41,402 bases of DNA from a virus (IMGVR_UViG_3300036982_001423); one strand, 5' to 3'. Positions 1-41,402 are shown, numbered from the stretch's first letter. The notes: generated by a model from the letters alone, not told the origin. Translations and numbers: made by a program.

Positions 1-291
1 TAGCAAAGAAGGAGAGGGAGAGGGTGTTGATTCCACTTCTTAACCAATGCAAAGTAGAAGAACTCAACAACAAGAAACGGTGTGATGCCGGGGTGGATAA
101 CATTTCGTCATTCCAGTTACGAGTAAGACAGGCGGCGTTTGAACGATGTGCTATATGGATAGAGGAAATCTTAAGGCGAGGTGAGCCATGACTGACGGTA
201 TCTATACGTTCATGGATTGCCCGGATAAGACCGACACTGGTATGTGTTGTGCTATCTATCACGATAGAAAAAGAATGTATGGAAATTGTGA

Positions 292-723
292 TTGTATGAT
301 GAAGAAAGGAATATGCAAACGGGGTTATGCCCGATGACTGACAAGCCGAAACGCAATACCCGGAAAATGCCCGAAAGGATTTCCTGCAAGGAGCGTTATC
401 CGATGACCGACCAGAAGCCCAACTGCGGAAATTGCCCCAAGTTTTCGTATATAGAACGAGATGTAAACTCTGGCAAATTATGTCGTGCCTGCGGATGCCC
501 CCAAGATCAAGTTTTGAAACTCCCGGCTTGTGACGGCGAGGTTGAACAATATAATCAGATGGTCACAAAAAAACACGGTTGTTTAGACCATCCCAGTGCA
601 AGGGAATGGCTGATGAGAGAGGTGATTGCGGAACTGGAACGCCTAATCACACAACCAACACTCGATAATGATATTAAGGTCGGACTCGAACACGCAATCG
701 CCGTAATCAGAGGTGAGAAATGA
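292..723 (+). CDS. Hypothetical Cys-rich protein, KPNCxxCP/AREWLM family member 1 (real start probably 334 or 403)
   Basis: ORF track. MTDQKPNCGNCP and GCLDHPSAREWLMREVI motifs are shared with the 5053 and 5301 ORFs. Confidence 0.75.
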   Translation: MYDEERNMQTGLCPMTDKPKRNTRKMPERISCKERYPMTDQKPNCGNCPKFSYIERDVNSGKLCRACGCPQDQVLKLPACDGEVEQYNQMVTKKHGCLDHPSAREWLMREVIAELERLITQPTLDNDIKVGLEHAIAVIRGEK

Positions 724-791
724 GTAGACCAAGGAATGTTATACCATATTTCATAGATGGTGCGGCTCGTATATTAGTGGTGAAAGGATGA
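720..791 (+). CDS. 23-aa micro-ORF MSRPRNVIPYFIDGAARILVVKG
   Basis: Manual translation. ATGA overlaps at both ends. C-terminus nearly identical to that of 7106..7351. Confidence 0.45.
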   Translation: MSRPRNVIPYFIDGAARILVVKG

Positions 792-796
792 CAGAC
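757..796 (+). repeat. 40-bp direct repeat copy A (gene end + RBS + next start); copy B at 7317..7356
   Basis: atggtgcggctcgtatatt(a/g)gtggtga(a/g)ag(g/a)atgacagac, 37/40 identical by manual alignment. Confidence 0.85.
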
Positions 797-1120
797 CGAT
801 GTAAAGCCAAAATTCGATTTGGCGATGATTACGGCGATAACTCATCGACGTTCCATTGTCAACTGGAAGAAGGGCATGAAGGCGAGCACAAAGAAGGCGG
901 CAATATGGGTGATGAGGAACACCCATATCCCTATATCTTGAAATGGATGGGGGATATGGGAGCTGAAATAACCCATGAAGATTGCCCGTGTATGGATTGC
1001 CCGCACGAAACAGACCGGGAGAACAACCCATGTCCGGTATCTACGGGAGAATTAGATGCGTGTGACCAATTCAAATGTAAAATATGTCTGGCGCATTGCG
1101 AAGGAGAGCCGTGTAAATGA
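788..1120 (+). CDS. Cys/His-rich hypothetical protein
   Basis: ORF track. GGTGA RBS and ATGA overlap. Several CxxC/CxC motifs. Confidence 0.7.
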   Translation: MTDRCKAKIRFGDDYGDNSSTFHCQLEEGHEGEHKEGGNMGDEEHPYPYILKWMGDMGAEITHEDCPCMDCPHETDRENNPCPVSTGELDACDQFKCKICLAHCEGEPCK

Positions 1121-1262
1121 CAGATATCCCAATCCAGAGAATGGTAAAATGTGCGATGTTATATGACCACGATCCATGTGATTTAGTGCCAGCAACAGAT
1201 TGTAAAACATGTGAATTTAAAGTGCATCTGTGGCAGGATCATGTAGTGTGTAGGTATGAACC

Positions 1263-1478
1263 ATGAAAGAATACATTATCACCGAAAAACAACTTAACAC
1301 CATCTACCATTTGTGTAAAGAGTTTCCGGATATCCCAAACGCAGACGCAGCAGTACGTTCTCGTCCGTTATTGGAAGAACAGGATCGCATATTAGACGCA
1401 TTTGTAAAATGGGATGAATCGAAATGGAGTGCAGCACGGATAAAAGAATACAAAGAACGCTTATGGGAAGGTGAATGA
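1263..1478 (+). CDS. Hypothetical protein, MKEYII/MTDYVI-start family
   Basis: N-terminus MKEYIITEKQL resembles the ORFs at 8335, 4460 and 7854. Confidence 0.7.
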   Translation: MKEYIITEKQLNTIYHLCKEFPDIPNADAAVRSRPLLEEQDRILDAFVKWDESKWSAARIKEYKERLWEGE

Positions 1479-1633
1479 GCGATGGACGTAATGCTAGAAA
1501 ACTATCTGCGGAGGATAGAGCAGCATCAACTAGAGACGAACAAACTCTTACAAGGTATCACCGCAGAGTTGTGTTTACAGAGGGGGATACGGTGTAACCA
1601 ATACTCATACACTCCCCCAAGAGATGACCAAGT

Positions 1634-2011
1634 ATGAAAATCTACGCACCATTTAGTGATACGGAAGTAACCGCCTTAAACGCATATCAGAAAAAAGGGG
1701 ATGAACACCCATTTACTTGTAAGTGCGGGGATCATACCCTACTAGTAGCGACGAATGAGGGCTGGATATGCAAGAATTGTGCATATACACAAAAATGGGC
1801 GTGGGCATGGATGTGCTATCGGGTAACAGGACGTGTAACAGGAACTTTCAAACGACAGGGTTTTACGTCGATAGACGAAAAAGACCCGGTAAAACGGCTA
1901 AGGAACTTAGAACAAAAGAGGATACACATTTGCGAGAACATTATTGAGTTGATAGATAAAGGGCAGATAATTTCGCATGAGATTGAGGAACTAAAGAAGG
2001 AGGTAATATGA
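1634..2011 (+). CDS. Phage-type hypothetical protein (LNAYQ...HPFTC...GWICxxCxYTQxWA) with coiled-coil tail
   Basis: Motif pattern I recognise from uncharacterised phage proteins. No function known to me. Confidence 0.7.
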   Translation: MKIYAPFSDTEVTALNAYQKKGDEHPFTCKCGDHTLLVATNEGWICKNCAYTQKWAWAWMCYRVTGRVTGTFKRQGFTSIDEKDPVKRLRNLEQKRIHICENIIELIDKGQIISHEIEELKKEVI

Positions 2012-2341
2012 ATGTCAATCAAAGAATTCATAGCGTTCTTTTACAATCCTACGTCGTTATGTGATTGTAAAGACCATATCCCGGTATGGGTAATCGAAAA
2101 TAATAAAATCTACCACGTATTCAAAGACGGTCAAGCGGTCTGTTCGACAGCGAATAAAAACAATGCAGAGCAGATCTTAAAATTATTAGATGAACATTCG
2201 AGAGTAGGTTGTAAAATGACCCCGCAAGAGATTGCGTCTGAGAAACGCATGGCAGCGATTAGGAACTTAGATTTCCAGTTAGATACAGTAAAAACACTGA
2301 TCATCTGTCTGGTAGGTATAACCGTAGGAAAATTATTGTAA
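2012..2341 (+). CDS. Hypothetical protein with hydrophobic C-terminus
   Basis: ORF track. GGAGGT RBS upstream. Confidence 0.65.
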   Translation: MSIKEFIAFFYNPTSLCDCKDHIPVWVIENNKIYHVFKDGQAVCSTANKNNAEQILKLLDEHSRVGCKMTPQEIASEKRMAAIRNLDFQLDTVKTLIICLVGITVGKLL

Positions 2342-2352
2342 GGAGGAAAAAC

Positions 2353-2943
2353 ATGCACCAAAACAGTTGTAAAAATGGATGTGAATTTGCAAAACAAATC
2401 CACTTAATGTCATACGCTACAAAGAACGCAGACGGCACATATTCGGATGCAGATTATTTGTATAAGTGTTCGAAGATTGATCGTATTATTTCACTAGATG
2501 CTTCAGTCTATGAACTAGGTTGTGCGACGTATAATTACATGCGAGCAGAACCCGTATGTATATGCACACCGCAACCAGAGCCAGAGCCAGAACATGTACC
2601 GGAACCTATCCCTACCCCTGTAACAGTAGAACCGGCAGTGATGGTAACTGGTGATCTTACATTCCCGGCACCCGCACCCACCCCCGTTGTAATTGTAGAA
2701 CCCATTGTTCCAAGGGTTGAACCGAAGTTCGTCCCGGAACCGTCAGCAAGTGTCCCACCAGAACCCGTAGCAACCCCAATACCGGAAGTCAAGAAGGTAA
2801 GAAAACCGCGTAGTAAACCCGCAGTAACCGTAACCGTTCCGGTAGTCCCGATTATCAGTGATAACACCCCGATAGTATCGGTAGTTACCGATACCCCGGC
2901 AATTCCGGTAGTTGTTGAACATACGGAGAAGAAAGAGGAATAA
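2353..2943 (+). CDS. Protein with Cys-containing N-domain and long Pro/Val/Glu/Thr-rich low-complexity tail
   Basis: GGAGG RBS. PEPEPE and PVVV repeats in the translation. Confidence 0.75.
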   Translation: MHQNSCKNGCEFAKQIHLMSYATKNADGTYSDADYLYKCSKIDRIISLDASVYELGCATYNYMRAEPVCICTPQPEPEPEHVPEPIPTPVTVEPAVMVTGDLTFPAPAPTPVVIVEPIVPRVEPKFVPEPSASVPPEPVATPIPEVKKVRKPRSKPAVTVTVPVVPIISDNTPIVSVVTDTPAIPVVVEHTEKKEE

Positions 2944-3185
2944 TGTCGGACACAACCATCACGTTCATAATCATGATTATGATCGTATGTAGCACATCAT
3001 TCATAGTATACAGTATTGCAGATGTAGCGAACATGCCGCCGTCTGATGAATATTGCCACAAAATCAGTGGCAACTTCTTTTTCCCGGTAGAACAATATGC
3101 GAAAATGGGTTTCTGTGAATTTAACGGGACTGCGTGGAATTTAAATCAGACGTTATTACGAGAGAAAATGAAAAATACAGGGTGA
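2943..3185 (+). CDS. Small N-terminally anchored membrane protein with Cys pair and N-x-T sequons
   Basis: Hydrophobic N-terminus. NGT and NQT sequons. Confidence 0.65.
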   Translation: MSDTTITFIIMIMIVCSTSFIVYSIADVANMPPSDEYCHKISGNFFFPVEQYAKMGFCEFNGTAWNLNQTLLREKMKNTG

Positions 3186-3190
3186 TACAC

Positions 3191-3787
3191 ATGGCGACAA
3201 AAGAGTATAATTTCGAGATATTAATACGAGGTCAGATGCGAGCGTATTCGAAGGATGAACTTATAGATACGTTCACAGACGACGGTTGTTTCGATATGAT
3301 CCGCAGGTCAATGCAATCATCCACGAATAAGTATAATGGTCGCATAAAAGTATCAGAACCTTCGGACACAGATCCGGATATTGGTTATTATAATGCTTGT
3401 CGATACGAGGAAGTCGAACAGAAATTGGCACACCGACTGTATATACATCAACTAAAAGGCACTGTAATGGATATGAAAGAACGAGTTAAAGTGTATGATC
3501 TTTCAATCTATGCGTTAAAAGATGCCAAAACGGGATTGTTCGGGGATAAAGAGCAAATCAAATTAACATATACTTCATTGGTATCTCAACGTGACCTCCT
3601 TAACAACCTGATCACAACAAGCGAGAGGGCTATCAAACGCATAAAATATTACGACGATATCCCAAACGGCGATGAAAAATGTCTTGAACAGGCAAAACGT
3701 ATCTTAATAGAACTTGACAGCATATTCCTAATCAACGAACCGACAGAACAAGATACCGTAGGGATTGTTACTGGTAAGGGCGTGTGA
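3191..3787 (+). CDS. Helical hypothetical protein (start MATKEY)
   Basis: ORF track 3134..3787. GGTGA RBS precedes ATG 3191. Confidence 0.7.
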   Translation: MATKEYNFEILIRGQMRAYSKDELIDTFTDDGCFDMIRRSMQSSTNKYNGRIKVSEPSDTDPDIGYYNACRYEEVEQKLAHRLYIHQLKGTVMDMKERVKVYDLSIYALKDAKTGLFGDKEQIKLTYTSLVSQRDLLNNLITTSERAIKRIKYYDDIPNGDEKCLEQAKRILIELDSIFLINEPTEQDTVGIVTGKGV

Positions 3788-3790
3788 GTT

Positions 3791-4075
3791 ATGCAGATTT
3801 CAGTGAATCAAGTGATTTTATATTCAGTGATTTTAACTGTAATCTTAATGTTAATCATGACCTTGATTGTACAAGCCATAATCACAAACCAACAGCAACA
3901 ATTCAATCAATATGCAAACGCCCCGGACTGTAACGGCACGATCCCGCAGACGGAAGGGATATGCAAATGGTCAAACCGGACATGGATTATGTGCGAGAAA
4001 CCGCTATTATCGGATGTGCATTTGAAGGACACGGTTTGGTGCAAACCAGTAGAATTGTATGATGTGACCACATGA
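3791..4075 (+). CDS. Small membrane-anchored Cys-containing protein
   Basis: N-terminal hydrophobic helix. NGT and NRT sequons and four Cys. Confidence 0.65.
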   Translation: MQISVNQVILYSVILTVILMLIMTLIVQAIITNQQQQFNQYANAPDCNGTIPQTEGICKWSNRTWIMCEKPLLSDVHLKDTVWCKPVELYDVTT

Positions 4076-4293
4076 AATCTTACATAAAAATCATTGAAGA
4101 ACCCACATCCGTTTATCTACCCGATTTCGTAGAAATTACAAAAGGCGGTATTAAACTTAAAGTTGCGATTAACATTGACCGTCCAATCGAAGCTCATCGG
4201 AGAATAGATGAAGGGTTAGGGTTACGCGAATATGCATTGAACGCATTGTTAATTCAGATCGATAAATTAGCGAACCGCAAGGAGAAAGTATGA
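4072..4293 (+). CDS. Hypothetical protein
   Basis: ORF track. ATGA overlap. Confidence 0.6.
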   Translation: MKSYIKIIEEPTSVYLPDFVEITKGGIKLKVAINIDRPIEAHRRIDEGLGLREYALNALLIQIDKLANRKEKV

Positions 4294-4459
4294 AACCCAC
4301 TATGGATGACGCGAAAAGATATTGCCCGTTGAATAGCAAAGGTCGTGGCGATAATCAAATATCGTTATTCGAAGATTGCGACGAAGGAACTTGTCAAGAT
4401 GACCACGAGAAATGCCATTATCTGACCTGTTCGATATTAAAAAATATAATGGAGAAATC

Positions 4460-4750
4460 ATGACAGATTATGTAATAGATGATGAGATCTTAAAAGAATT
4501 GATACACCACAGATTTAATATGTTACGATTTATCCACACCTGTCCCTTAAAAGCAGAATTGAAAAAAGAGAAAGAAAAAACTTTAAATGAGTTCATGAAA
4601 GCAATCGACTGGCGTTTCAACGATACAGAAAAAGGAAGAATGATCATTAAAACCATTCAGGAAATTAAAGATAATCTCTACAAAGAACCGGACGATAAAG
4701 AGGATCTACAAGAGTTCCCATTTCGTAGCATTCCGAGGAGTAAATCATGA
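4460..4750 (+). CDS. Hypothetical protein, duplicated gene copy 1 (MTDYVIDDEILKEL...)
   Basis: Near-identical paralogue at 7854..8156. Confidence 0.8.
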   Translation: MTDYVIDDEILKELIHHRFNMLRFIHTCPLKAELKKEKEKTLNEFMKAIDWRFNDTEKGRMIIKTIQEIKDNLYKEPDDKEDLQEFPFRSIPRSKS

Positions 4751-4752
4751 AA
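4551..4752 (+). repeat. 202-bp direct repeat copy 1; copy 2 at 7957..8158
   Basis: Manual alignment: 8 mismatches, 6 synonymous. Confidence 0.9.
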
Positions 4753-4938
4753 GGATATAGGAAAATAGACACATCTGATGTAATTTTTGGTAGTGAAATG
4801 AATTTGTCAGATGATGATTTGTACAACCAAGAGGAACGCATGAGAAGTATCCTCGGTACAATATCAACATATGCAGAAGAAAAAAACTGCCGCGATTTTG
4901 TGGTTGTTGTATATGCAAAGAGGAAAACCAATGACTGA
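4747..4938 (+). CDS. Hypothetical protein
   Basis: ORF track. ATGA overlap. Confidence 0.55.
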   Translation: MKGYRKIDTSDVIFGSEMNLSDDDLYNQEERMRSILGTISTYAEEKNCRDFVVVVYAKRKTND

Positions 4939-5052
4939 CACAAAACCCTCTGTTGATTATCACGAACTATCATTCGGTATCATAATCGGTGTAGGGATAT
5001 CGGCGTGTGTAGTATTCTTTTACATATCCGAAATATTAGGATGTGGTTGTAG

Positions 5053-5304
5053 ATGATTGACCAGAAACCCAACTGCACTACCTGTCCTCAAATGAAGGCT
5101 CGTGGTTATTGTATGGAAAAAGGCACTGCTTGTGTCGAACATCCTCAAGCAAGAGAATGGTTGATGCGGGATGTGATCAAGGAGTTGGAAGCAACGATTA
5201 AATGCAATTCTCGGTGGGATGAATTAGAGCCGTATTACGAAGGTGTAAATGCGGCAACTAAAGAAGCAATCGCCCTAATAAAAGAGGGGATGAAAAAAGA
5301 ATGA
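5053..5304 (+). CDS. KPNCxxCP/AREWLM family member 2
   Basis: MIDQKPNCTTCP...EHPQAREWLMRDVIKELE. Confidence 0.8.
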   Translation: MIDQKPNCTTCPQMKARGYCMEKGTACVEHPQAREWLMRDVIKELEATIKCNSRWDELEPYYEGVNAATKEAIALIKEGMKKE

Positions 5305-5618
5305 CTGAAAAACCAAACTGCTCGAACTGCCCTCACCATACAGAAAACAAATATATGGATTTCTGTTGCGGGTATCCGCTATCTAACGACAATCCCACAG
5401 AAATATATAATCATATAAAGAAACGTGGTTGCCTCTCGCATCCCGGCGCAAGGGAATGGTTGATGGGCGATGTGATTGAAACGATGGGTAATGAAATACA
5501 GTGTATAGAGGATGATATACCAGAGATGCAAAATCTTGGTAATATCAATAAAGCGATGCAAACAATTGGTGTTTTACGAGCAGCAATATCCCTCATCAAA
5601 AACGGAGTGATAAAATGA
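5301..5618 (+). CDS. KPNCxxCP/AREWLM family member 3
   Basis: MTEKPNCSNCP...GCLSHPGAREWLMGDVIE. Confidence 0.8.
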   Translation: MTEKPNCSNCPHHTENKYMDFCCGYPLSNDNPTEIYNHIKKRGCLSHPGAREWLMGDVIETMGNEIQCIEDDIPEMQNLGNINKAMQTIGVLRAAISLIKNGVIK

Positions 5619-5809
5619 AACTATATACTGCCGAAGTAACCTGCAAAATATGCCCTCACCGAGTACCATTAGGACAATTCTATAAAAAATACGACGAAGA
5701 ATATTATGATAGATTTCTCTGCTTAAACGAATCAAGACCGAGAGAGATATTGTTACACCCATCACTTGATGCCCCGGATTGGTGTAAATTAGAGGACGTG
5801 AAAGAATGA
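5615..5809 (+). CDS. Small Cys-containing protein (CxxC...C...PDWCKL)
   Basis: ORF track. C-terminal PDWC is also seen in 13652..13951. Confidence 0.6.
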   Translation: MKLYTAEVTCKICPHRVPLGQFYKKYDEEYYDRFLCLNESRPREILLHPSLDAPDWCKLEDVKE

Positions 5810-6006
5810 AACACAAAAAAATCGGAGATCATGGAGTTATGCAGATGTCATCACATTCGGGGTGTCCGAATTGTAATGCAGATTTGGGTTATTATGTGGA
5901 ATTACTCGAAGGATTTACTTGTGAGGTATGTGGTGCAGAATTTGGTATCGAGATCGAACCCGAATACTGGTATACATGTATAAAAGAAGGTGAGAATTAT
6001 GAATAA
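5806..6006 (+). CDS. Zn-ribbon micro-protein (CPNC...CEVCG)
   Basis: Two CxxC motifs. Confidence 0.65.
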   Translation: MKHKKIGDHGVMQMSSHSGCPNCNADLGYYVELLEGFTCEVCGAEFGIEIEPEYWYTCIKEGENYE

Positions 6007-6280
6007 ATTCTTTCAAGACGTTATCGCAGAAGAGGATGCAATCCGCGATGAAATCTCCGTTATCAGAGCTAAAGTAAAATCATTAGAGGATGAAATAACA
6101 AAATTAAAAAATAATGACGCGTTCTTTTACCGACAACGAAAATATTGTAAGTTCTCAGACGGATATAACTGTAAATTCACTGGAGATTGTGATCACAAGG
6201 ACAAAGTAGTTGGTTATACGAAGATATTTGGAATACGGTGTTTTGCGGAACAACACGCAAGGGAGGCAAATAATGATTGA
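5990..6280 (+). CDS. Coiled-coil plus Cys-cluster hypothetical protein
   Basis: ORF track. Heptad-like N-half and Cys-rich C-half. Confidence 0.6.
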   Translation: MRIMNKFFQDVIAEEDAIRDEISVIRAKVKSLEDEITKLKNNDAFFYRQRKYCKFSDGYNCKFTGDCDHKDKVVGYTKIFGIRCFAEQHAREANND

Positions 6281-6437
6281 CCAATTCGAACCTTATGAAT
6301 CATCAGGGTATTGTTGCCATGTAACCTGCACAGCGTATACGAATTGGACAATGTGCGAATTGGTAATTAACGATAGTAATACTTATTACGAAAATTGTAG
6401 AAAATTACGTGAAACTGGGCGGTGTTTGCATCCATGA
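6273..6437 (+). CDS. Cys-rich micro-protein
   Basis: GGAGG RBS before ATG 6273, in frame with track ORF 6210..6437. Confidence 0.55.
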   Translation: MIDQFEPYESSGYCCHVTCTAYTNWTMCELVINDSNTYYENCRKLRETGRCLHP

Positions 6438-20015: not shown

Positions 20016-20518
20016 TGAAAGGACAGAAAGCATTATTTTCAAGTGCTAGTAACGAATGGGAAACTCCGCAGGGTTTATTTGATACCCTTAACAAAGAGTT
20101 TCAATTCGATTGTGACGCAGCAGCAACCGCATCGAACTGTAAAGTAGGCAGGTTCTTTGCAGAAGGGTCGGTATGGGATGCACTTAAATTAGATTGGAGT
20201 TCAATTCCACACGTAACTAAAATTTTCTTAAATCCTCCGTATGGTCAAATCGCAGTGTTTATGAAAAAGGCGTATGAAGAAAGCCTGAAAGGACTTACAG
20301 TAGTATGTCTAATCCCTGCAAGGACGGATACGAAATATTTTCACGAGTATTGTATGAAATCCCACGAGATCCGGTTTATCAAAGGCAGACTAAAGTTCAC
20401 GAACTCGACATTAGGGGAAAAGAAACTTACGTCAGCTACATTTCCATCATGTATCGTAATATTTGACCACAAAAAATATGATAAAAATAACGATCCTATA
20501 TTAACCGTACAGGAGTAA
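20015..20518 (+). CDS. Phage-type DNA N6-adenine methyltransferase (Dam family)
   Basis: NEWETPQ..FD.LN.EF.FD.DAAA, LNPPYG, CLIPARTDT and IRFIKGRLKF. Confidence 0.95.
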   Translation: MKGQKALFSSASNEWETPQGLFDTLNKEFQFDCDAAATASNCKVGRFFAEGSVWDALKLDWSSIPHVTKIFLNPPYGQIAVFMKKAYEESLKGLTVVCLIPARTDTKYFHEYCMKSHEIRFIKGRLKFTNSTLGEKKLTSATFPSCIVIFDHKKYDKNNDPILTVQE

Positions 20519-33300: not shown

Positions 33301-33564
33301 ATGACACTAGAGATAACTAAATCGTCAATTATCGAGGGGATCTACGTAGGTAAGGAGATCCTCTTCTTCTTTATAGGATTGTTTACACTAGTCCTAATAC
33401 CATTTTTACATGCAGAACCAATTTCGATTTTACAAACCAGTATCATTGGGGCTGCATTATTTCTTGAAGGTCTTTCAAGCATGCTGGAAATGGGATATAA
33501 TTTCATAACAGATCATATCAAACCGTGGTATGAAAACCAGAAAAGGAAAAGAAAATTAATCTAA
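33301..33564 (+). CDS. Two-TM membrane protein
   Basis: Hydrophobic segments and basic C-terminus. Confidence 0.6.
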   Translation: MTLEITKSSIIEGIYVGKEILFFFIGLFTLVLIPFLHAEPISILQTSIIGAALFLEGLSSMLEMGYNFITDHIKPWYENQKRKRKLI

Positions 33565-33885
33565 AACACGTTCAATATTCTGTACACGAGTTCTATCCCG
33601 AACTTCAGCTCTTTTCCCCTGATTGTATGATTGTATGTTCCCCAAGTATCCTGTGACTCTTGAGAGCTGGAAAACATCATGCGAAAAACAACCCTCTACT
33701 GGGCATATTGGCTGACCACAATCAGGGCAATATTTTAATCCAGAAACCATATTATGAGAACAGTGAATATTATCTAATTTACACATTGGAGCGAGATGTG
33801 GCTCTCCACATTGGGGGCATTTATTATCTATAAGTTGATTATCGTTCAACACCGTATAACACGTATGACATTTCCACCGTTTCAT
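33556..33885 (-). CDS. Stand-alone Zn-ribbon plus NrdD-type glycyl-radical C-terminal domain (start may lie further upstream)
   Basis: Several CxxC motifs, then SHDVFQLSRVTGYL...NQGKRAEVRDR, matching the class III RNR C-terminus. No catalytic barrel. Confidence 0.8.
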   Translation of the reverse strand: MKRWKCHTCYTVLNDNQLIDNKCPQCGEPHLAPMCKLDNIHCSHNMVSGLKYCPDCGQPICPVEGCFSHDVFQLSRVTGYLGNIQSYNQGKRAEVRDRTRVQNIERVLD

Positions 33886-34362
33886 TTCAACAGGTTTTTC
33901 CGTTATAATCGGTTTACATAAAAGAGGTTGTTCAACAATCATTCCAGATACTTGATTTGTAGTTCCTAAAGCAATACTTTCACATTCAGACAAAAAAACC
34001 ACCTGCGGGCAGATACAACATATAGTGCTGGATAGTAATAAACTTTGGGAACTCCTATACAGGCGTGAAACTTTCTGTATATACACTCACGCAACCGTTC
34101 GGTCAGAAACATATATCAATCCAAAACAACCCAGAACCAAATGCATATAAATCAGGGAGGCGTAATAGTAACTTGTCTCAAGTATCCTCAACTTGGGACG
34201 CTCGCAACTCGAACAAGCATGTAACACCATTAAGCAATCTCTACAACAACCCTCGTCCATAATATCGCAAATGGCAAATTTGTGAACAGGTGTGTAGGAA
34301 GCCTCCTCTCTCTGCACATCCCAATTTTTCGTTTTTGTAAATCCCGTCAGAACAGAGGAATC

Positions 34363-34409: not shown

Positions 34410-36815
34410 ATGTTAAAGCGCAAACTAACACGTAATCGAATAATATCTAAACGTGCACGGAATATTGGAAACTACGATGAAATTACAGTTCCCGCACCCA
34501 CTCTTTCATTAGGTGAATACAGTTACGGATTATTGAAAGCCCATGATGACTATAATACAGAACTCCAGAAAGCAATTGATACTACTCAATCAAAAATAGA
34601 TGAAATAAAAACAGTTTTAACCAAAAGCGATCAGGAAGTATTGGCTTACTATGGAGGTAACAAATACCCGGCGGATACATATTGGGTTACGCACACAAAT
34701 CCAAAAACACCTTATACGGGCGGAGGATATGGAACACTAACTCCGGAAATAGCTAGATGGCAACTCCAAAACTCGATAGATGGCAAGAGTGAGCGTGTAG
34801 GGGGATTAACTCTTACAGAACAGATTGCAAACTACAAAGAGATCCAAGAAGATAACACATTAAGTCGGGCGTACGTCCAGAAACAGGTCAATGATGTAAT
34901 GGACGGTAAACCGCCTACATATAGTAATACACCGAGCGCTTACGAAGCCCATTTAATTGCAGAAGGTGGAAATGAAGAGATAATCAAACAACTGGTCAAT
35001 GATCGTACAAAACCCGGCACCACGCCCGGAACCACTCCCCCAACTCCCGGAACGAGTACAGCCACTAAAACAGAAACCGAAGCCGCAATAGCGGCTTTAA
35101 AAGCCAACCCTACTGCAAGAAAAGCGTTACTAGCCGATCCGACAATAGCGAAAATAATGGCAGATCCTACAGCACGAGTAGCGTTCTTATCAGACCCGAC
35201 AGTAGTTAAAACGTTAAGCAACCCAAAAGCCTTAAAGTATATCGCAGAGAACCCGGATGAAATTGGCACATGGATATCTAAACTAGTGGGTGGCAGTTCA
35301 ACCCCCGCAACACCCGGAGGAAATACAGCAGCAACGGCAAAAGCCGCCAAACAAACTGCATATACAGCATTAGCAACCGGGTTAGCAACTGCATTACCGT
35401 TAATGGCGAAGAATGACGACGCTGCCAGAACTGCATCAGTAACAGCGTTCAGCACACTTACCCAATCTGTAGTAGATATGGTAGGTGCAATAGCAAAAGC
35501 AAACGCAGACGCAGCGTATAAATTACACCCATATCCGGATAATTACGTATTAGTTGAGATAGGGGATACAGGGTGGGGAAAATGGCAAGCGCCGAACTCT
35601 ATAGGGTATGTAGACTCTCCTTTAGTCCCGATGACGGATAAGAAACCGCCAAAAGCAACGGCAATGTCATTAAGTGACTTCAAAGCCAGACCGGAAGTAA
35701 TGGCAGTATTATCTACATCCGCAGTAAGGACTGCACTGGCAGACCCGACAATTAAAATCATACTAGGCAACCCGACAGCAAGAAAAGCTCTATTCGATAA
35801 AATCAATCAGGCTGTCTTAAACCCGGAAGCCATGAATGTTGCATTAAGCAATCCAAAAACAATGCCCGCTTTGATAACAAAAATCGCAAAGAATTTACCG
35901 AAAACCACGTTCCAAGATTTCATGCAACGTCCGGAAATGAAAGCAATGATGGCAACAACTGCTGTCCAGTCAGCATTAAAGAACCCGGATGTTCAGGCAG
36001 CATTAAAGAACCCGAAACTACGTGCAGCTCTATCAGACCCTAAAGTACAGGCAGCGTTAAGTAACCCGAATACGTTAATGACCGCACTATCAAACCCGAA
36101 AACTATCCCATCATTGATCAATAAACTACAAGGGGGTAGTTCATCGAATATCAAAGGATTAACGGCGAAATATCCGGAACTATCGGCAACGATCAGGGCA
36201 AACCCGAAAGCAATGGCAGCGTTCCAGAACCCGCAGGTGCAATCAGCGTTAAGTAACCCTGCAACAAGAGCGGCTATTAGGGAGAACCCACAATTCCAAG
36301 CGGCAATGAAAAATCCGGACGCTATTAAGAATTTCATGTCAGATCCAAAGAAAGTCCAAGCAGCATTAGCGAAAATCAAAACTATAACCCCTCCAGAAAG
36401 CAAATCTCCGACTGGGTATAAAGGGTTCATATCACAATATCCGGGATTACAAGACGCTATCAGGTCAAACCCACGGGCAATGACAGCGTTCCAGAATGAT
36501 AAAGTAAGAGCAGCGATGTCAAGCACAAAAGCACAAAATATTTTACAAAGTTCCAGAGCAAAAGCGTTTTTATCAGACCCGCAGAAAGTAAAGGCGGCAC
36601 TTAACAATCCGCAACAGATTAGGAATATGTTAGAGAAAATAGGCGTCTCATATGGGGGATCGGGGCGATCATTAGGTAACTACGGCACTATAAAACCGAA
36701 ACGCACAAGAAAACACACTGAACTGGGTGAAGTATACGACTTGTGGGGAACAGCACCGAAACGTAAACCGTTAAAAAAGAAACAGCCTAAGAAAAACACA
36801 TTCTGTGGGATTTAA
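34410..36815 (+). CDS. 801-aa protein with basic termini and five STI1/DP-like helical repeat blocks; probable virion/core protein
   Basis: Repeated (A/F)(L/M)x(N/D)P units, Lys/Arg-rich ends, and IGNY, LGEY and LGNY motifs. Confidence 0.85.
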   Translation: MLKRKLTRNRIISKRARNIGNYDEITVPAPTLSLGEYSYGLLKAHDDYNTELQKAIDTTQSKIDEIKTVLTKSDQEVLAYYGGNKYPADTYWVTHTNPKTPYTGGGYGTLTPEIARWQLQNSIDGKSERVGGLTLTEQIANYKEIQEDNTLSRAYVQKQVNDVMDGKPPTYSNTPSAYEAHLIAEGGNEEIIKQLVNDRTKPGTTPGTTPPTPGTSTATKTETEAAIAALKANPTARKALLADPTIAKIMADPTARVAFLSDPTVVKTLSNPKALKYIAENPDEIGTWISKLVGGSSTPATPGGNTAATAKAAKQTAYTALATGLATALPLMAKNDDAARTASVTAFSTLTQSVVDMVGAIAKANADAAYKLHPYPDNYVLVEIGDTGWGKWQAPNSIGYVDSPLVPMTDKKPPKATAMSLSDFKARPEVMAVLSTSAVRTALADPTIKIILGNPTARKALFDKINQAVLNPEAMNVALSNPKTMPALITKIAKNLPKTTFQDFMQRPEMKAMMATTAVQSALKNPDVQAALKNPKLRAALSDPKVQAALSNPNTLMTALSNPKTIPSLINKLQGGSSSNIKGLTAKYPELSATIRANPKAMAAFQNPQVQSALSNPATRAAIRENPQFQAAMKNPDAIKNFMSDPKKVQAALAKIKTITPPESKSPTGYKGFISQYPGLQDAIRSNPRAMTAFQNDKVRAAMSSTKAQNILQSSRAKAFLSDPQKVKAALNNPQQIRNMLEKIGVSYGGSGRSLGNYGTIKPKRTRKHTELGEVYDLWGTAPKRKPLKKKQPKKNTFCGI

Positions 36816-36828
36816 GGAGTTTATAGTT

Positions 36829-37434
36829 ATGGTAACAAAAACTAAAACTAAATGTAAACGCAAGAAAGTCCCGAAACGGGTCGGGAATTACACCGTAGGG
36901 GATTTCGAGAACCAACCGGGAACTGTATTTGATATGGTCAACATATCAGGCAGACACGACAAAAAATCGACTCCCTTAAAACCGTATGACGTAACTACGT
37001 TACAGCCGTATAGTCCGAAAGGAATATCATCGACAGGCTTAAAACCGTATACTATTCCCACACCATATACAAAACGAAAAAATATTGGTGAATACAGTAA
37101 AAAGAAACGCAATGCGAAACGGATCGGCAATTTCTTTAATATGCCCCGCCCGAACCCATATGATGTATCTAAAATAAAACCGTATGTTGCCCCGAAACCT
37201 ATCGGGACTTATGGAACTACTAAAGTTATTGACCAAGACGACGTACCGGGCGACTATAGATCTCTTGGCATCCACAACACATTCCCGGAAGCGGTCAAAC
37301 ATTACGAAGCGTGGAATAAAGTTAAACCGCAATTACACTATATAATCAGTGTGAACACACTTAACGGTTCCACTTACTATTCAGTATGGACAAAAACCCC
37401 GAAAAACGCAAAGAAAAAGGGTAGAGTGCAATGA
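36829..37434 (+). CDS. Basic protein with five [IV]G[NDET][YF] motifs and C-terminal small alpha/beta domain
   Basis: GGAG RBS before MVTK. Translation. Confidence 0.8.
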   Translation: MVTKTKTKCKRKKVPKRVGNYTVGDFENQPGTVFDMVNISGRHDKKSTPLKPYDVTTLQPYSPKGISSTGLKPYTIPTPYTKRKNIGEYSKKKRNAKRIGNFFNMPRPNPYDVSKIKPYVAPKPIGTYGTTKVIDQDDVPGDYRSLGIHNTFPEAVKHYEAWNKVKPQLHYIISVNTLNGSTYYSVWTKTPKNAKKKGRVQ

Positions 37435-37616
37435 ACAATCCGAAAATGGGTATTACAGCGATCATTAAAGGCAAGAAATATGATCTGGTGTATAAAGACA
37501 CGAACAAAGTCAAATTCGATAAAATGATGCATTCATTTTCCGTAAAAGGATTTGATGTCGAAGCCATTAACCCTGCGAATAAAGGGTTCTGGTATTTGTA
37601 TGCAAGGGAGAGGTAA
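37431..37616 (+). CDS. Small basic alpha/beta protein
   Basis: ORF track. KKYDLVY...KGFDV...WYLYAR pattern. Confidence 0.65.
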   Translation: MNNPKMGITAIIKGKKYDLVYKDTNKVKFDKMMHSFSVKGFDVEAINPANKGFWYLYARER

Positions 37617-37621
37617 CTGAA

Positions 37622-38287
37622 ATGCTGAACATAAACCGCATCGTCAAACAATCTCGTGCTAACGGTCATGGGGTCAGGTATACTATATGGATGCAAGGCT
37701 GTGATCGTAGATGTCCGGGCTGTTTCAACCCGGAAACTCAGCCGCATACAAAAGCGCATCAAATGGACGTTCGTTCGTTAATAAACGACGTAATGAACAC
37801 TCCCGGAATTACAGGGATCACTCTATCGGGAGGAGAACCATTACTGCAAGCTAAAGAACTAGCCGTACTAGCAAAAGCCGTACAGGCTGCGGGATTAACC
37901 GTAATGATATTCACGGGTTTCTCAAAACCCCCGAACAATCCGGATGTCCATAACCTGTTGAAGTATACGGATATGGTAATTGCAGGGGAATATGATCGCA
38001 CAAAACCCGGCAAGATCCCGTTGATCGGCTCATCCAATCAGCGAGTAATGAACTTAACAAAACGATTACCGAACCCCCTTACAGACAAAACAATTCCGAG
38101 AGTAGAGATTATACAAAACGGCACAGAACTTAGTTTATCTGGGTTTCCGACACCGGAAGAAGTCAAAGAGTTTAAAGAAACGTTCGGGTCGAAATCTGTA
38201 GGTGATTACGGAAGGAAATTAATGAAAGCCAGACCTAAACCAAAAGTGAAACAACCTACCAGTAGAAAGAGGCAGATTTTATGGTAA
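37622..38287 (+). CDS. nrdG: NrdG-like radical SAM activase with basic C-terminal extension
   Basis: NGHGVRYTIWMQGCDRRCPGCFNP (CxxxCxxC), GITLSGGEP, DMVIAGEY and GSSNQRV. Confidence 0.85.
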   Translation: MLNINRIVKQSRANGHGVRYTIWMQGCDRRCPGCFNPETQPHTKAHQMDVRSLINDVMNTPGITGITLSGGEPLLQAKELAVLAKAVQAAGLTVMIFTGFSKPPNNPDVHNLLKYTDMVIAGEYDRTKPGKIPLIGSSNQRVMNLTKRLPNPLTDKTIPRVEIIQNGTELSLSGFPTPEEVKEFKETFGSKSVGDYGRKLMKARPKPKVKQPTSRKRQILW

Positions 38288-38667
38288 CAAAACTCAAAAA
38301 GAAAACAAGTTGCGGGTGTAAGAACCCCGCCCGCACTGTAGGCAAATACAGCGAAAAACTATCACAACCTCGGTCTATTGAAACACATGGGATCTATTAC
38401 AACAAACTCACCGAGAAGAAAGCTCGTGATAAATTAAATGTAAAATTAAATCATATCTGTGAACGTTACTACGCGAACAGCATCCCGTGGGGTTTGATAA
38501 TGGATGCAGCGATTAGTGAAGGGTTTGATGGCGCAATGCTGACAAACATTGATGATAACCGTCCGGGTAAAGTCCATGTGAACATCGGGGGTAATACATG
38601 GCTTACCGTAATGTGGTATATCATGCCCGTAAGTAAGAAATTCGAAATAACTGCATATGCATCGTGA
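38281..38667 (+). CDS. Protein with basic MVTK leader ending VGKY
   Basis: ORF track. Confidence 0.75.
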   Translation: MVTKLKKKTSCGCKNPARTVGKYSEKLSQPRSIETHGIYYNKLTEKKARDKLNVKLNHICERYYANSIPWGLIMDAAISEGFDGAMLTNIDDNRPGKVHVNIGGNTWLTVMWYIMPVSKKFEITAYAS

Positions 38668-38683
38668 AAAAGGAGTAATTGAA

Positions 38684-38893
38684 ATGGTAACAAAACGCAA
38701 GACAACTACGAAAAAGAAATCAAGTGCAAAGCCGAAGACTAAAATTGTATACCGCACACGCACAGTATACAAAGAAGCCAAATCGCCGGTAAACAATATT
38801 GCGAAAGACACATCAGCGATGATTGGCGGTGTCTTAATTCCCGCAGTAATCGGTATTGGTGTTGCAGGTGCGATTGGGAAAGCATTACAGTAA
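38684..38893 (+). CDS. Basic N-terminus plus Gly-rich C-terminal TM helix micro-protein
   Basis: MVTKRKTTTKKK...MIGGVLIPAVIGIGVAGAIGK. Confidence 0.75.
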   Translation: MVTKRKTTTKKKSSAKPKTKIVYRTRTVYKEAKSPVNNIAKDTSAMIGGVLIPAVIGIGVAGAIGKALQ

Positions 38894-38904
38894 GTGGGGT
38901 TCAA

Positions 38905-39078
38905 ATGACCTCACTAGAACCCTATTATTGCAATGATTGTGAACACATGGTAAAACATCGGTTATTATCAGCAGGAGCGCACCATGCGTGTCCGAAATGT
39001 GGCGGGTTAATGTCTACGCTCAAGGACATTAAACCACGAGCGACAAAACAAATGAAATTAGATTGGTGTGAAGCATGA
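38905..39078 (+). CDS. Zn-ribbon micro-protein (CNDC...CPKCG)
   Basis: Manual translation, 57 aa. Confidence 0.55.
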   Translation: MTSLEPYYCNDCEHMVKHRLLSAGAHHACPKCGGLMSTLKDIKPRATKQMKLDWCEA

Positions 39079-39332
39079 CCGCAAAAAAAGAATTAGCCTT
39101 CCCGGCAAACATGTTTGCAACCCATAAAAAAGGGTCAATGCACAGGATGTTGAATGTACCGAAAGGAGAAAAATTACCGAGAACGTTCATGCAGGAAATT
39201 GTAGACACCCCGCTTGGCGGCACAGCCCATAACCCTACACAGATTGGCAAACCGGAAATCACTGTCACGCGTCTGGTTAAATCACGGGCGAACGGTCTTT
39301 TGAACGCAGTAAGATTACGCAAGAAAAGGTAA
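39075..39332 (+). CDS. Small basic viral protein (KKGSMHRMLNVPKGEKLP)
   Basis: Resembles the widespread uncharacterised viral motif K(K/P)GALHxxLxVPxGxKIP...RA. Confidence 0.65.
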   Translation: MTAKKELAFPANMFATHKKGSMHRMLNVPKGEKLPRTFMQEIVDTPLGGTAHNPTQIGKPEITVTRLVKSRANGLLNAVRLRKKR

Positions 39333-39338
39333 CTGTAT

Positions 39339-39779
39339 ATGCACACATCAAAACGATTACGAACAAAACCCCGTTCAATGGTAGGTCATCCACATAAGTT
39401 CTCAGACGGTTTCTATTACTGTAAAGGCATATATGGCAGTAATAAAGACACAGCGTTACAGATGGCAGATGAGATCACGAAACGGTATGGTATAACTACA
39501 AGAGTAACCGAGAAGATGCGGAAGGTAGATGGCGAACACGGGACGGTAAAACGTGCACATTATCTAATCTGGGAAAAATCTCCGATGCCGATAGGCAACT
39601 TCGGAGTAGATAATGCGGAAAAAGCGAAAGAGCGAGAATTAGTGAAACTAGAGAAAGTAAAACAAGAGAAGAAACGTGCAGCCGAAGAAGCGAAAGCCGA
39701 AGCACTACGTAAGAAATTACGAGCACAAGGACAACACACGTTATCAGACGCAGGTGTAAAAACGCTCAAACACTGGTAA
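39339..39779 (+). CDS. Basic protein: alpha/beta domain, IGNF motif, charged helical tail
   Basis: ORF track. Confidence 0.75.
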   Translation: MHTSKRLRTKPRSMVGHPHKFSDGFYYCKGIYGSNKDTALQMADEITKRYGITTRVTEKMRKVDGEHGTVKRAHYLIWEKSPMPIGNFGVDNAEKAKERELVKLEKVKQEKKRAAEEAKAEALRKKLRAQGQHTLSDAGVKTLKHW

Positions 39780-39781
39780 GT

Positions 39782-39812
39782 TATATATACTTCAGATGCC
39801 TTACTACTATTA
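39782..39812 (+). promoter_or_regulatory. Putative late promoter 2: TATATATA + 11 nt + TTACTACTATTA
   Basis: Same spacing as at 34363 and 40585. Confidence 0.65.
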
Positions 39813-39828
39813 TTCAAATCAAACCTAG

Positions 39829-40566
39829 GTGAATGAAAACATGGTAAGAACAAATCTAAACACGTTCCTGAACGGAGTCACTCTGAATGCAGACGGTACA
39901 TCTACGCTCACGAAAACTTCACAAGGGATATATAAAAACTGGGAAAAGACCTCTCCGCAAAACTATCGGAAAGCCACAAATCCCCAAGGATTGCTAAACG
40001 GACAAAACATTGTAAGAACCAACACAGACGGTTCTGTAGTTCTTAACAAAAGAACAACTACGCAAGCCAAAACCTATATTGCGAAAGTATATCCGACTTC
40101 AAAGGATCGGGATATCCTACGCATGTCATTAGCAGGTGGCGGTGGCGGTTTAGATACAGGATCTTACGGAAAGAAAAAGAAAGCATGTAAGAAGAAACCG
40201 AAAAGTGTAGGTAAAATCACAGAAGGTTTTGGTAAAAATGCAACCAAAGCAAAAGTCTGTGATGGCACAAACGCAGTATGCACCCCCAACTTTAGAGGGG
40301 GTAACTGGGGCACACAGGGTAATCGGTATAATGCAGGGTTTGAATACAAAGGCAGATTAGGGGATGGTACTGCTGTTAAAAACCCGGACGTAATCACAAT
40401 CCACAAGACGCATACCACAATCCCGGAGAAGTATAAACCGAAGAAAACAGGTAGTTATGGTGGCGGCACTCGTCCAGTCACTCCAAAAAAATGTAAAATT
40501 GATATTGTATGCACCCCCGCAAAAAATGGGATGCTAGGTTGCAAACGAATTATCGTTTGTAAATAA
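39829..40566 (+). CDS. Basic protein with two TGSYG motifs
   Basis: ORF track. Lys-rich C-half with Cys. Confidence 0.75.
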   Translation: MNENMVRTNLNTFLNGVTLNADGTSTLTKTSQGIYKNWEKTSPQNYRKATNPQGLLNGQNIVRTNTDGSVVLNKRTTTQAKTYIAKVYPTSKDRDILRMSLAGGGGGLDTGSYGKKKKACKKKPKSVGKITEGFGKNATKAKVCDGTNAVCTPNFRGGNWGTQGNRYNAGFEYKGRLGDGTAVKNPDVITIHKTHTTIPEKYKPKKTGSYGGGTRPVTPKKCKIDIVCTPAKNGMLGCKRIIVCK

Positions 40567-40632: not shown

Positions 40633-40809
40633 ATGATGCAGGTAGACTTTAGTAAACGCAAGCGGGAAGGCGATGTGAAGTTCAAGTTGTATGGCGTGAT
40701 GAGCTGTACGAAATGTGCGGAAGGTTGGAAACACAAACTTATGCGGAAAGGCAAAAAAGTCAGATTACACAAAGTAGAGCACGGCAGAGTGGAAGTCTGG
40801 TCATCGTGA
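40633..40809 (+). CDS. 58-aa basic alpha/beta micro-protein
   Basis: Manual translation: MMQVDFSKRK...VEVWSS. Lies directly downstream of promoter 3. Confidence 0.6.
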   Translation: MMQVDFSKRKREGDVKFKLYGVMSCTKCAEGWKHKLMRKGKKVRLHKVEHGRVEVWSS

Positions 40810-41402
40810 ACCAACCAAAACCGTTCAATCCACAATGGTATCGTAATTTACAGACGTTTATAGTAGAACGCGGTCTTGACCCGGAAACTACAGATTTACG
40901 AGCATATATAGATCCCAGTTTAAAAACATATGGCGAAATTAAAAGAGACGTAGCCCGAAAATTAGATATGCAGTATGAATCAGGTGGGCGGGGTATTCAG
41001 GGTTACAAATATAATTCACAAGAATCAGCAGTTGCAGCCCCAAAACAATTCCGGCAGAACATGGAACGGGAAGAATGCGATAGAATTGCAGAAAGTTGTG
41101 AAACCTATTGTAACAACGCAGCGTGTAGAACGTTTAAGAAATCCTGCGAAGGGGATATTACACCATGCCCCCAGAAAGAACGACGGGCTGAACTCAAATA
41201 TCGCAAATCCAGTGTTGCAGCTAAGGGAGCAGCCATAGGAGATTGCACAGTAAGGTCATACTGCGTCGCTCCGCACACCAGACCTCCGCAGCACAATAGC
41301 AAGACGGGCAATCCAATAGTAGTCAAAGGCTATTGCGTAAACCCACACCCCCGATTATGTAGGCGTAAAGCATTTGAATCTAATGAAATGTATGGGAGAT
41401 AA
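40806..41402 (+). CDS. Cys-rich basic hypothetical protein
   Basis: GTGA overlap start, in frame with track ORF 40713..41402. Confidence 0.7.
   Translation: MNQPKPFNPQWYRNLQTFIVERGLDPETTDLRAYIDPSLKTYGEIKRDVARKLDMQYESGGRGIQGYKYNSQESAVAAPKQFRQNMEREECDRIAESCETYCNNAACRTFKKSCEGDITPCPQKERRAELKYRKSSVAAKGAAIGDCTVRSYCVAPHTRPPQHNSKTGNPIVVKGYCVNPHPRLCRRKAFESNEMYGR

Follow-up and report, generated by a model that had tools for sequence, protein, structure and literature searches.

A portable basic tag with a glycine-aromatic seam on unrelated proteins of a likely archaeal virus-like element: a genuine module and a tentative processing site

What does a short motif do when it recurs at the borders of Lys/Arg-rich ends in six clustered, unrelated proteins? 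The question is raised by IMGVR_UViG_3300036982_001423, a stretch of viral DNA of 41,402 nucleotides (nt), analysed here at its full length (the window), in which the motif [ILVT]-G-[NDESTK]-[YF] crowds into the region from 34,410 to 40,566. An earlier reading of this DNA (the original prediction) had claimed a tag-and-cleave system, with basic tags that bind DNA, carry unrelated proteins into the virus particle and are removed at the motif. The part of this claim that stands is a real, portable tag module with the motif at the border between tag and domain; the virion part is without support, as no structural genes were found. We tentatively favour a reading, argued from sequence patterns, in which the seam between tag and protein body would be a processing site that releases basic peptides.

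The original prediction had counted 13 copies in about 6 kb. A six-frame scan recovers every one of them (13 of 13) at its exact coordinate, and all lie in frame within six plus-strand open reading frames (ORFs) of 801, 201, 221, 128, 146 and 245 amino acids (aa). The copies are:

IGNY 34464, LGEY 34509, LGNY 36672, VGNY 36880, VGDF 36895; + strand
IGEY 37084, IGNF 37123, IGTY 37201, VGDY 38198, VGKY 38338; + strand
IGNF 39591, TGSY 40156, TGSY 40447; + strand

The cluster comprises ten ORFs totalling 2,023 aa, and the remainder of the window 65 ORFs totalling 8,566 aa. Shuffling residues within each protein (n=5,000) gave the cluster a mean of 0.91 copies and a maximum of 6, compared with the 13 observed, so that the predicted enrichment over the rest of the proteome is borne out (13 against 0.9). 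Outside the cluster there are 4 copies where 3.8 are expected. The original prediction, having noticed about one copy in the preceding 34 kb, undercounted, but the background does lie at chance level. Because the pattern was picked by eye and post hoc, looser forms were tested too, with 3,000 shuffles: in the cluster, G.[FY] occurs 21 times against 8.3 expected (z 4.8) and G.[FY]G 8 times against 0.63 (z 9.5), and [ILVMT]G by itself shows no enrichment (43 against 44). No shuffle equalled the observed count, either for the full pattern (0 of 5,000) or for the simpler patterns (0 of 3,000). The copies draw on all four Gly codons and on seven different codons at position 1; since synonymous codons are mixed in this way, the motif is a protein-level signal and not a DNA repeat. 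Codon diversity also rules out a by-product of the genome's abundant 10-bp palindrome, of which only 4 copies lie beyond 34 kb.

Compared with the remainder of the window, the cluster contains more Gly, Lys, Thr and Pro, and one might suppose that low-complexity sequence rich in Gly, Tyr and Lys yields the motif by chance or through its composition. We give this next to no chance: it is refuted by the within-protein shuffles, by the recurrence of the motif in relatives, and by homologues, in which the motif positions are kept down to 45% identity. Conservation of this kind, on which the original prediction had made its case depend, is seen in homologues. The 128-aa family (7 sequences, 45-79% identity) keeps the motif Gly in every member, although the leader preceding it can be anything from 13 to 52 residues long. 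The 201-aa protein has a single relative among 5.8 billion clusters, 79% identical, which keeps four of the five copies, with substitutions that stay within class. Searches with the NrdG-like (221-aa) and 128-aa proteins led to six related metagenome loci (L001, L004/L010 and L006-L009), and a seventh (L013) encodes a homologue of the protease candidate described below. The motif recurs in every one of these relatives, strongly enriched (5-20 times) and in a sharper form, [ILVM]-G-x-[FY]-G, and its carriers there are mostly not homologues of the window's tagged proteins:

L001: 5 copies observed, 0.16 expected
L004: 7 copies observed, 0.95 expected
L006: 4 copies observed, 0.25 expected
L009: 8 copies observed, 0.41 expected

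In the window the motif-bearing proteins are the following:

34410..36815, + strand: 801-aa protein, tagged at both ends (ORF and motif scan)
36829..37434, + strand: 201-aa protein (motif scan and homologue alignment)
37622..38287, + strand: NrdG-like radical S-adenosylmethionine (radical-SAM) activase, 221 aa (Pfam Fer4_12, 6.8e-28)
38281..38667, + strand: 128-aa protein (AlphaFold2 and homologue alignment)
39339..39779, + strand: 146-aa protein (motif scan)
39829..40566, + strand: 245-aa protein, 241 aa from the ATG at 39841 (motif scan)

As originally claimed, the motif stands at the border of Lys/Arg-rich ends, with basic leaders of 18, 17 and 19 aa before it in the proteins that begin at 34410, 36829 and 38281, and basic tails of 43, 25 and 35 aa after it in those that begin at 34410, 37622 and 39829. 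The Lys/Arg fraction within 12 residues of the motif is 0.26, compared with 0.16 for the cluster overall and 0.09 around the chance copies elsewhere in the window. The polarity is constant, with the Lys/Arg run on the terminal side of the motif and the folded domain on the opposite side: N-proximal copies (n=18) have a fraction of 0.33 outside (upstream) and 0.18 inside (downstream), and C-proximal copies (n=17) have 0.13 inside (upstream) and 0.42 outside (downstream). In many cases the domain side is acidic. A number of unrelated proteins have in common a leader that runs M-V/T-T-K, a basic stretch, (G)C-x-C, a second basic stretch and P-V/A-K/R before reaching the motif. AlphaFold2 places the tags in disordered regions, as in residues 1-36 of the 128-aa protein, where the predicted local distance difference test score (pLDDT) is below 50 compared with 84-94 in the domain, and in residues 186-249 of the protease candidate.

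The portable module is thus a Lys/Arg-rich run of 10-40 residues, often with an M-V/T-T-K start and a C-x-C pair, and its seam to the protein body is hydrophobic-Gly-x-Tyr/Phe-(Gly/Ser). It is conserved, disordered and found on unrelated proteins at either end, with the basic run always outermost, and we hold it close to certain that the module is genuine, selected and portable. Judged by their composition, the tags may bind DNA. Composition also bears on a different role, that of a sticker for nucleic acids or condensates, in which Gly-flanked aromatic residues and Lys/Arg runs would stack on bases or drive multivalent weak contacts and so keep proteins attached to the genome, or to a compartment for replication or assembly, without a specific receptor or protease. 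The high Lys/Arg content of the flanks, the multivalency of the 201-aa protein and the Gly-aromatic-Gly chemistry with interchangeable Tyr and Phe, like that of FG or [G/S]Y[G/S] repeats, all suit such a role. However, the polarity is strict, the first Gly is invariant and an aliphatic residue precedes it, which is more in keeping with a shaped binding pocket than with generic stickiness, and the switch of charge at the seam, with its acidic domain side, would be left unexplained. We therefore consider the sticker role improbable.

Tyr and Phe swap freely at the aromatic position, from which it follows that the hydroxyl group is not required; this free replacement rules out protein priming and any modification specific to Tyr. 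A leader like that of type IV prepilins, or one with a lipobox, is likewise ruled out, there being no hydrophobic segment after the motif.

The carriers wear the module in different ways. The 801-aa protein has an 18-aa basic leader followed by IGNY (34464) and LGEY (34509), and, near its other end, LGNY (36672) followed by a 43-aa Lys/Arg/Pro tail that ends in FCGI. The 201-aa protein begins with a 17-aa basic leader of the MVTK type, and the first 130 aa contain repeated KPY units together with the five motif copies, two of which (37084 and 37123) enclose a 9-aa basic run; a small C-terminal domain follows the repeat part. In the 128-aa protein a 19-aa MVTK...CGC basic leader and VGKY (38338) precede a globular domain (residues 42-128), for which a fold search gave no match at E <=0.001. 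The 146-aa protein has a basic N-terminus, a small domain, IGNF (39591) right after that domain and a charged helical tail; the homologous seam in L009 reads VGKFG. Finally, the 245-aa protein has two TGSY-G copies (40156 and 40447), each beside Lys-rich, Cys-containing runs. Apart from the 801-aa and NrdG-like proteins, none of the motif-bearing proteins (the remaining four) matched a family in Pfam or PHROG.

The NrdG-like activase is a carrier whose homologues differ in having the tag. Its core ends near residue 189, after which come VGDY (38198) and a 25-aa basic tail ending in ILW. This tail is present only in the closest homologues (P0005-P0007 and L001) and absent in P0008-P0024; slightly more distant homologues stop at the core or bear a few basic residues. 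Restriction of the tail to the nearest relatives means that the tag is portable. On the 115-kb contig and at L003:1158-1682 the call for the NrdG-like gene is 174 aa long and lacks the Cys cluster, which is probably a gene-calling difference; the ORF in the window is intact at 221 aa.

Since the NrdG-like gene lies inside the cluster in the window, L001, L004 and L009, we asked whether the motif could be the substrate of this radical-SAM enzyme, which would place a glycyl radical or some other modification on the invariant Gly. The glycyl-radical site, R-V-x-G-[FYW], is superficially alike, with a basic residue three before the Gly. However, the register differs (aliphatic at -1 and aromatic at +2 here, compared with -2 and +1 in glycyl-radical enzymes), the motif stands in a disordered context and is not an R-V-x-G-[FYW] site in a C-terminal glycyl-radical domain, the activase is itself tagged, and relatives with an untagged NrdG still have tagged proteins. 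Moreover, a proper RVTGY partner is encoded nearby:

33556..34086, - strand: stand-alone NrdD C-terminal glycyl-radical fragment with zinc ribbon and RVTGY (Pfam NRDD, 4.3e-08, above cut-off)

The fragment lies beside the cluster, with the NrdG-like activase, in relatives as well (L004:7267-7701). It is likely the activase's true partner and might serve class III ribonucleotide reductase as a spare part. We thus regard modification of the motif by the activase as highly improbable.

Another way to view the motif is through modules that are separate in one genome and fused in another, because the motif appears at the joint. At L009:2239-2928 a small domain is followed by IGQFG, a 16-residue basic C-x-C linker, IGRFG and a domain of the 128-aa family. 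NrdG is fused to the next module, in L009 and in P0005, through linkers with three motif copies. At L009:634-1056 the C-domain of the 201-aa protein is encoded without the repeat region and is fused to another small domain by a basic G-M-F-G linker. In P0129 a protein of the P0123 family, described below, is fused to the protease candidate, and the seam reads EDVGDFG followed by basic residues. Presence at fusion seams is expected of a processing site and is not required of a pure docking tag.

We come here to processing as the possible function of the seam. What leads us to favour it, tentatively, is that the five-position consensus has small and aromatic residues and is placed strictly at the border between tag and domain, that the motif flanks internal basic linkers on both sides and sits at fusion joints, and that relatives encode a self-tagged protease candidate. 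A dedicated protease would cut at the aromatic residue or the next Gly, or directly behind either, parting basic peptides from folded modules, and fused modules would be resolved like a small polyprotein. The basic peptides, once freed or exposed, might go on to bind the genome or some other polyanion. The best candidate for the enzyme would be the following protein of the relatives, whose own tag could keep it with its substrates:

L004:16605-17354: JAMM/MPN-like metalloprotease candidate, 249 aa, directly after a P0123-family gene

In 6 close sequences E23, H72, S73, H74, P75, S86 and D89 are invariant (H-S-H-P...S-x-x-D), and in 24 distant ones E, H and H never vary, and P and D hardly do. 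The metal motif E-x(n)-H-[ST]-H-x(7)-S-x-x-D is present with a spacing of 11 instead of 7 between the second His and the Ser. The protein ends in a tail of the type found in the window, [IV]-G-[DE]-F-G-K, a Lys run and F-Y-G-I/V, and in the family tail G233, F235 and G236 are invariant. Pfam gives the close family sub-threshold matches only (DUF4329 0.056, Prok-JAB 0.021), and among the distant members that an exhaustive profile search recovered, 3 of 24 match Prok-JAB, reaching 2e-5. Foldseek's top matches to the core are BRCC36 (E 2.4e-3) and RadC; in a wide structural search (VIA-align) the matches that cover the core are PfJAMM1 (Z 5.2), Cap3 (Z 5.0) and BRCC36; and the nearest Atlas clusters are Prok-JAB, DUF4329, Toxin-JAB1 and RadC. 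A PDB profile search with the family returned a designed-repeat artefact only. Taken together, these results are weak but concordant, and suggest from sequence and model that the candidate belongs to JAMM/MPN. In the relatives the family is represented by P0125-P0131. An exhaustive search adds about 45 relatives without a tail, mostly of 210 aa, and a few large proteins that have the domain inside them. The other candidate is an ORF at L009:7500-7847, cut by the contig end, which contains HELAH and has sub-threshold SprT/WLM matches; it lies about 400 bp downstream of a C-tagged gene and, by its sequence, is a second candidate protease. Neither candidate was found in the window.

Put in its boldest form, the proposal is that an archaeal virus-like clade has a tag-and-cleave code, in which polybasic C-x-C peptides are carried on h-G-x-[FY]-G seams (h, hydrophobic) and a self-tagged JAMM-type metalloprotease cuts those seams, releasing genome-condensing peptides and resolving fusions. 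So complete a scheme seems to us unlikely as it stands. If true, it would put JAMM to use in a system without ubiquitin-like proteins, and adenovirus core maturation would have an analogue that arose by convergence; if the JAMM-like enzyme cuts the seams, the substrates known for that protease superfamily would no longer be confined to ubiquitin-like proteins. Shared peptide codes allow complex viruses to direct the sorting and maturation of many proteins together. To our knowledge hardly any such code has been described for archaeal viruses, most of whose proteins resist annotation. Through the motif a dozen orphan protein families can be connected, by sequence, as one functional set, and it predicts exact processing sites and names a candidate enzyme. 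Short basic tags could also serve as portable targeting or DNA-binding handles.

Several observations weigh against processing by such an enzyme. The model of the candidate has a mean pLDDT of only 57, with residues 186-249 below 50, and its fold matches lie below the usual thresholds. The window holds no ORF with H-x-H...S-x-x-D, and a protein search found no homologue of the JAMM-like gene on the 115-kb contig (the syntenic slot falls past the contig end). The usual substrates of JAMM enzymes are ubiquitin-like proteins, cleaved behind their Gly-Gly, and a fold of this kind was not seen here. In many of the window's copies the aromatic residue is followed by Ser, Thr, Asp or Glu and not by Gly; with this position variable, the scissile bond cannot be placed. 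Finally, the second conserved element at the end of the tails (F-Y/C/H-G-I/V or x-L-W) suggests that the tail is an intact docking unit and is not discarded.

This second element, at the extreme C-terminus, is F-[YCH]-G-[IV] on basic C-tails, except that those of NrdG have x-L-W instead. Examples are at 36684-36812 in the window, at L002:14577-15161 and at L004:16028-17354. At the end of the tail the codons TTCTATGGGATTTGA also contain the ATG of the next gene, which thus overlaps, and downstream products accordingly start with MGF. One of these examples (L002:14577-15161) is a P0123-family gene just past the window end, whose product ends in IGDYG, a basic run and FYGI. Other members of this family of 190-aa proteins, which bear a C-terminal tag and a ParB/Srx-looking E-G-A-H-R-T-H-A ... 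V-P-V-W, are at L004:16028-16615, L009:6534-7103 and in P0129; the family has no match in Pfam or PHROG.

Tails with a conserved end, together with a module that is disordered and portable, speak for an address tag that is not cleaved at all. The seam, the basic run and the hydrophobic C-end would bind one receptor (a shell, a hub or a membrane protein) and so load many proteins or bring them to the same place, in the manner of encapsulin cargo or of the T4 capsid-targeting sequence if that were not removed, and the shape of the motif recalls the core of encapsulin loading peptides, [IV]-G-S-L-[KR]. Yet neither a receptor nor a shell gene was identified by Pfam and PHROG in the window or the related loci, docking has no need for copies that flank internal linkers and stand at every fusion seam, and the 201-aa protein, with its five copies, looks more like a scaffold, or a precursor that is cut several times, than like a cargo. 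This is a serious alternative, though in our judgement a doubtful one. The 801-aa STI1-repeat protein is unlikely to be a universal receptor for the tag, as the syntenic block of L004 has tagged proteins without it. The comparison with encapsulins can be drawn further. Their loading peptides are also short, disordered terminal peptides with an aliphatic-Gly-polar-hydrophobic core beside basic residues, carried by unrelated cargo. Loading peptides, however, are uncleaved, without long polybasic runs and adjacent to the shell gene, and no adjacent shell gene was found in the window or related loci.

A literature search found no published description of this tag system. Returning to the seam as a processing site, in the way it would work the system is most like adenovirus core maturation and the capsid-targeting tags and prohead protease of T4 and giant phages. 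It is set apart from both by its consensus, by the different class of its putative protease, and by the lack of capsid genes among those found. In adenovirus, adenain cuts pVII, pre-Mu and pVI at (M/I/L)-x-G-x|G or (M/I/L)-x-G-G|x, with the basic pVIc peptide as cofactor. The likenesses are short Gly-containing sites that start with an aliphatic residue and border very basic peptides, a small basic peptide with a site on either side (pre-Mu is the parallel), a basic peptide at the C-terminus whose first residue behind the site is Gly, and a protease held on a polyanion by such a peptide, as we propose for the candidate enzyme. The seam [ILVM]-G-x-[FY]-[GS], in contrast, has its Gly one position earlier and requires an aromatic residue, so that it does not follow the adenain consensus; moreover, no C5 cysteine protease was found here, the candidate is a JAMM-like metalloprotease, and the host is probably archaeal.

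With T4 and giant phages the common ground is that unrelated proteins, enzymes included, have a short terminal tag in common that is bordered by a consensus site, that the set contains a multiply cut, scaffold-like protein, and that the protease belongs to the tagged set. The sites of T4 and the giant phages (phiKZ/SPN3US) end in Glu, (L/I)-x-E or (S/A/G)-x-E, and their tags are N-terminal only (PMC3012670, PMC5694885, PMC10052503), whereas the tags here are polybasic and lie at either end or internally. The candidate also resembles JAMM/MPN+ peptidases (PfJAMM1/HvJAMM1 with their SAMPs, Cap3 of CBASS, Rpn11 and BRCC36), in that it has the E...HxH...SxxD site, its weak fold and profile matches all fall in that superfamily, and the motif usually ends in Gly. 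It differs in a loop from second His to Ser that is 4 residues longer, and no ubiquitin-like substrate or E1/E2 partner is seen here. We know of no JAMM enzyme that processes polybasic tags.

How far do the tagged proteins belong to a virus particle? The DNA covered is the 41-kb window and about 40 kb of related loci, which is part of each genome only. Within it, Pfam and PHROG revealed no capsid, portal, terminase, scaffold or prohead-protease gene, nor any prohead protease of the S77/S78/S14 type or HK97-fold capsid, in which the element differs again from T4 and the giant phages. Packaging of the tagged proteins into virions, as originally claimed, is possible, and nothing in the available DNA supports it. 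The accompanying statement that no protease is visible in the window agrees with these searches, which detected no protease family in the cluster or the larger window ORFs. Pfam matches of the cluster, of the larger ORFs and of the genes called in L002, L004 and the remaining loci likewise include no adenain/Ulp1-like papain-like cysteine protease.

Searches found no relatives of the element in IMG/VR (three queries) or among the INPHARED phages, and none among GTDB genomes, where there was one spurious short match; the clade is known only from sediment and lake metagenomes of JGI, ENA and Logan. L004 carries two YfhO-like genes and an AglB/STT3 oligosaccharyltransferase (1-6343), which by their sequences point to glycosylation functions on the element, and a histone-fold gene (20196-20480); the window encodes a DUF3821 surface protein. 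AglB/STT3, the histone fold and the DUF3821 protein make an archaeal host likely. The element's status as a virus would rest on context.

Among the remaining features of the cluster, the body of the 801-aa protein holds several STI1/DP and ubiquilin-like helical repeat blocks (Pfam STI1-HOP_DP 3.6e-15 and UBQLN1 1.3e-09, above cut-off). The STI1/DP domain typically belongs to eukaryotic co-chaperones, and to meet it on an archaeal virus-like element is unusual. Two further genes lack the motif:

38684..38893, + strand: small MVTK protein, no motif (ORF and synteny in relatives)
40713..41402, + strand: conserved Cys-rich protein, no motif (synteny marker)

The small MVTK protein has a polybasic N-terminus and a single C-terminal membrane helix, which gives it a tail-anchored look, and it always lies shortly downstream of the 128-aa gene (L001:2419-2628, L004:12129-12332 and L009:3965-4141). 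The Cys-rich gene is followed in relatives by the C-tagged P0123-family gene and then, in L004, by the JAMM-like gene. Beyond the window end, a single Logan contig bears the last gene and stops 39 nt after it, leaving a 16-codon stub that starts MGFD. Finally, small domains of 60-90 aa that end, for example, in Y-x-V-W-x-K lie at 37431-37616, 37240-37434 and 39400-39590 of the window and in many ORFs of L004 and L006-L009; they have no database matches, their sequence pattern appears SPOR/RRM-like, and they are joined to tags in many arrangements.

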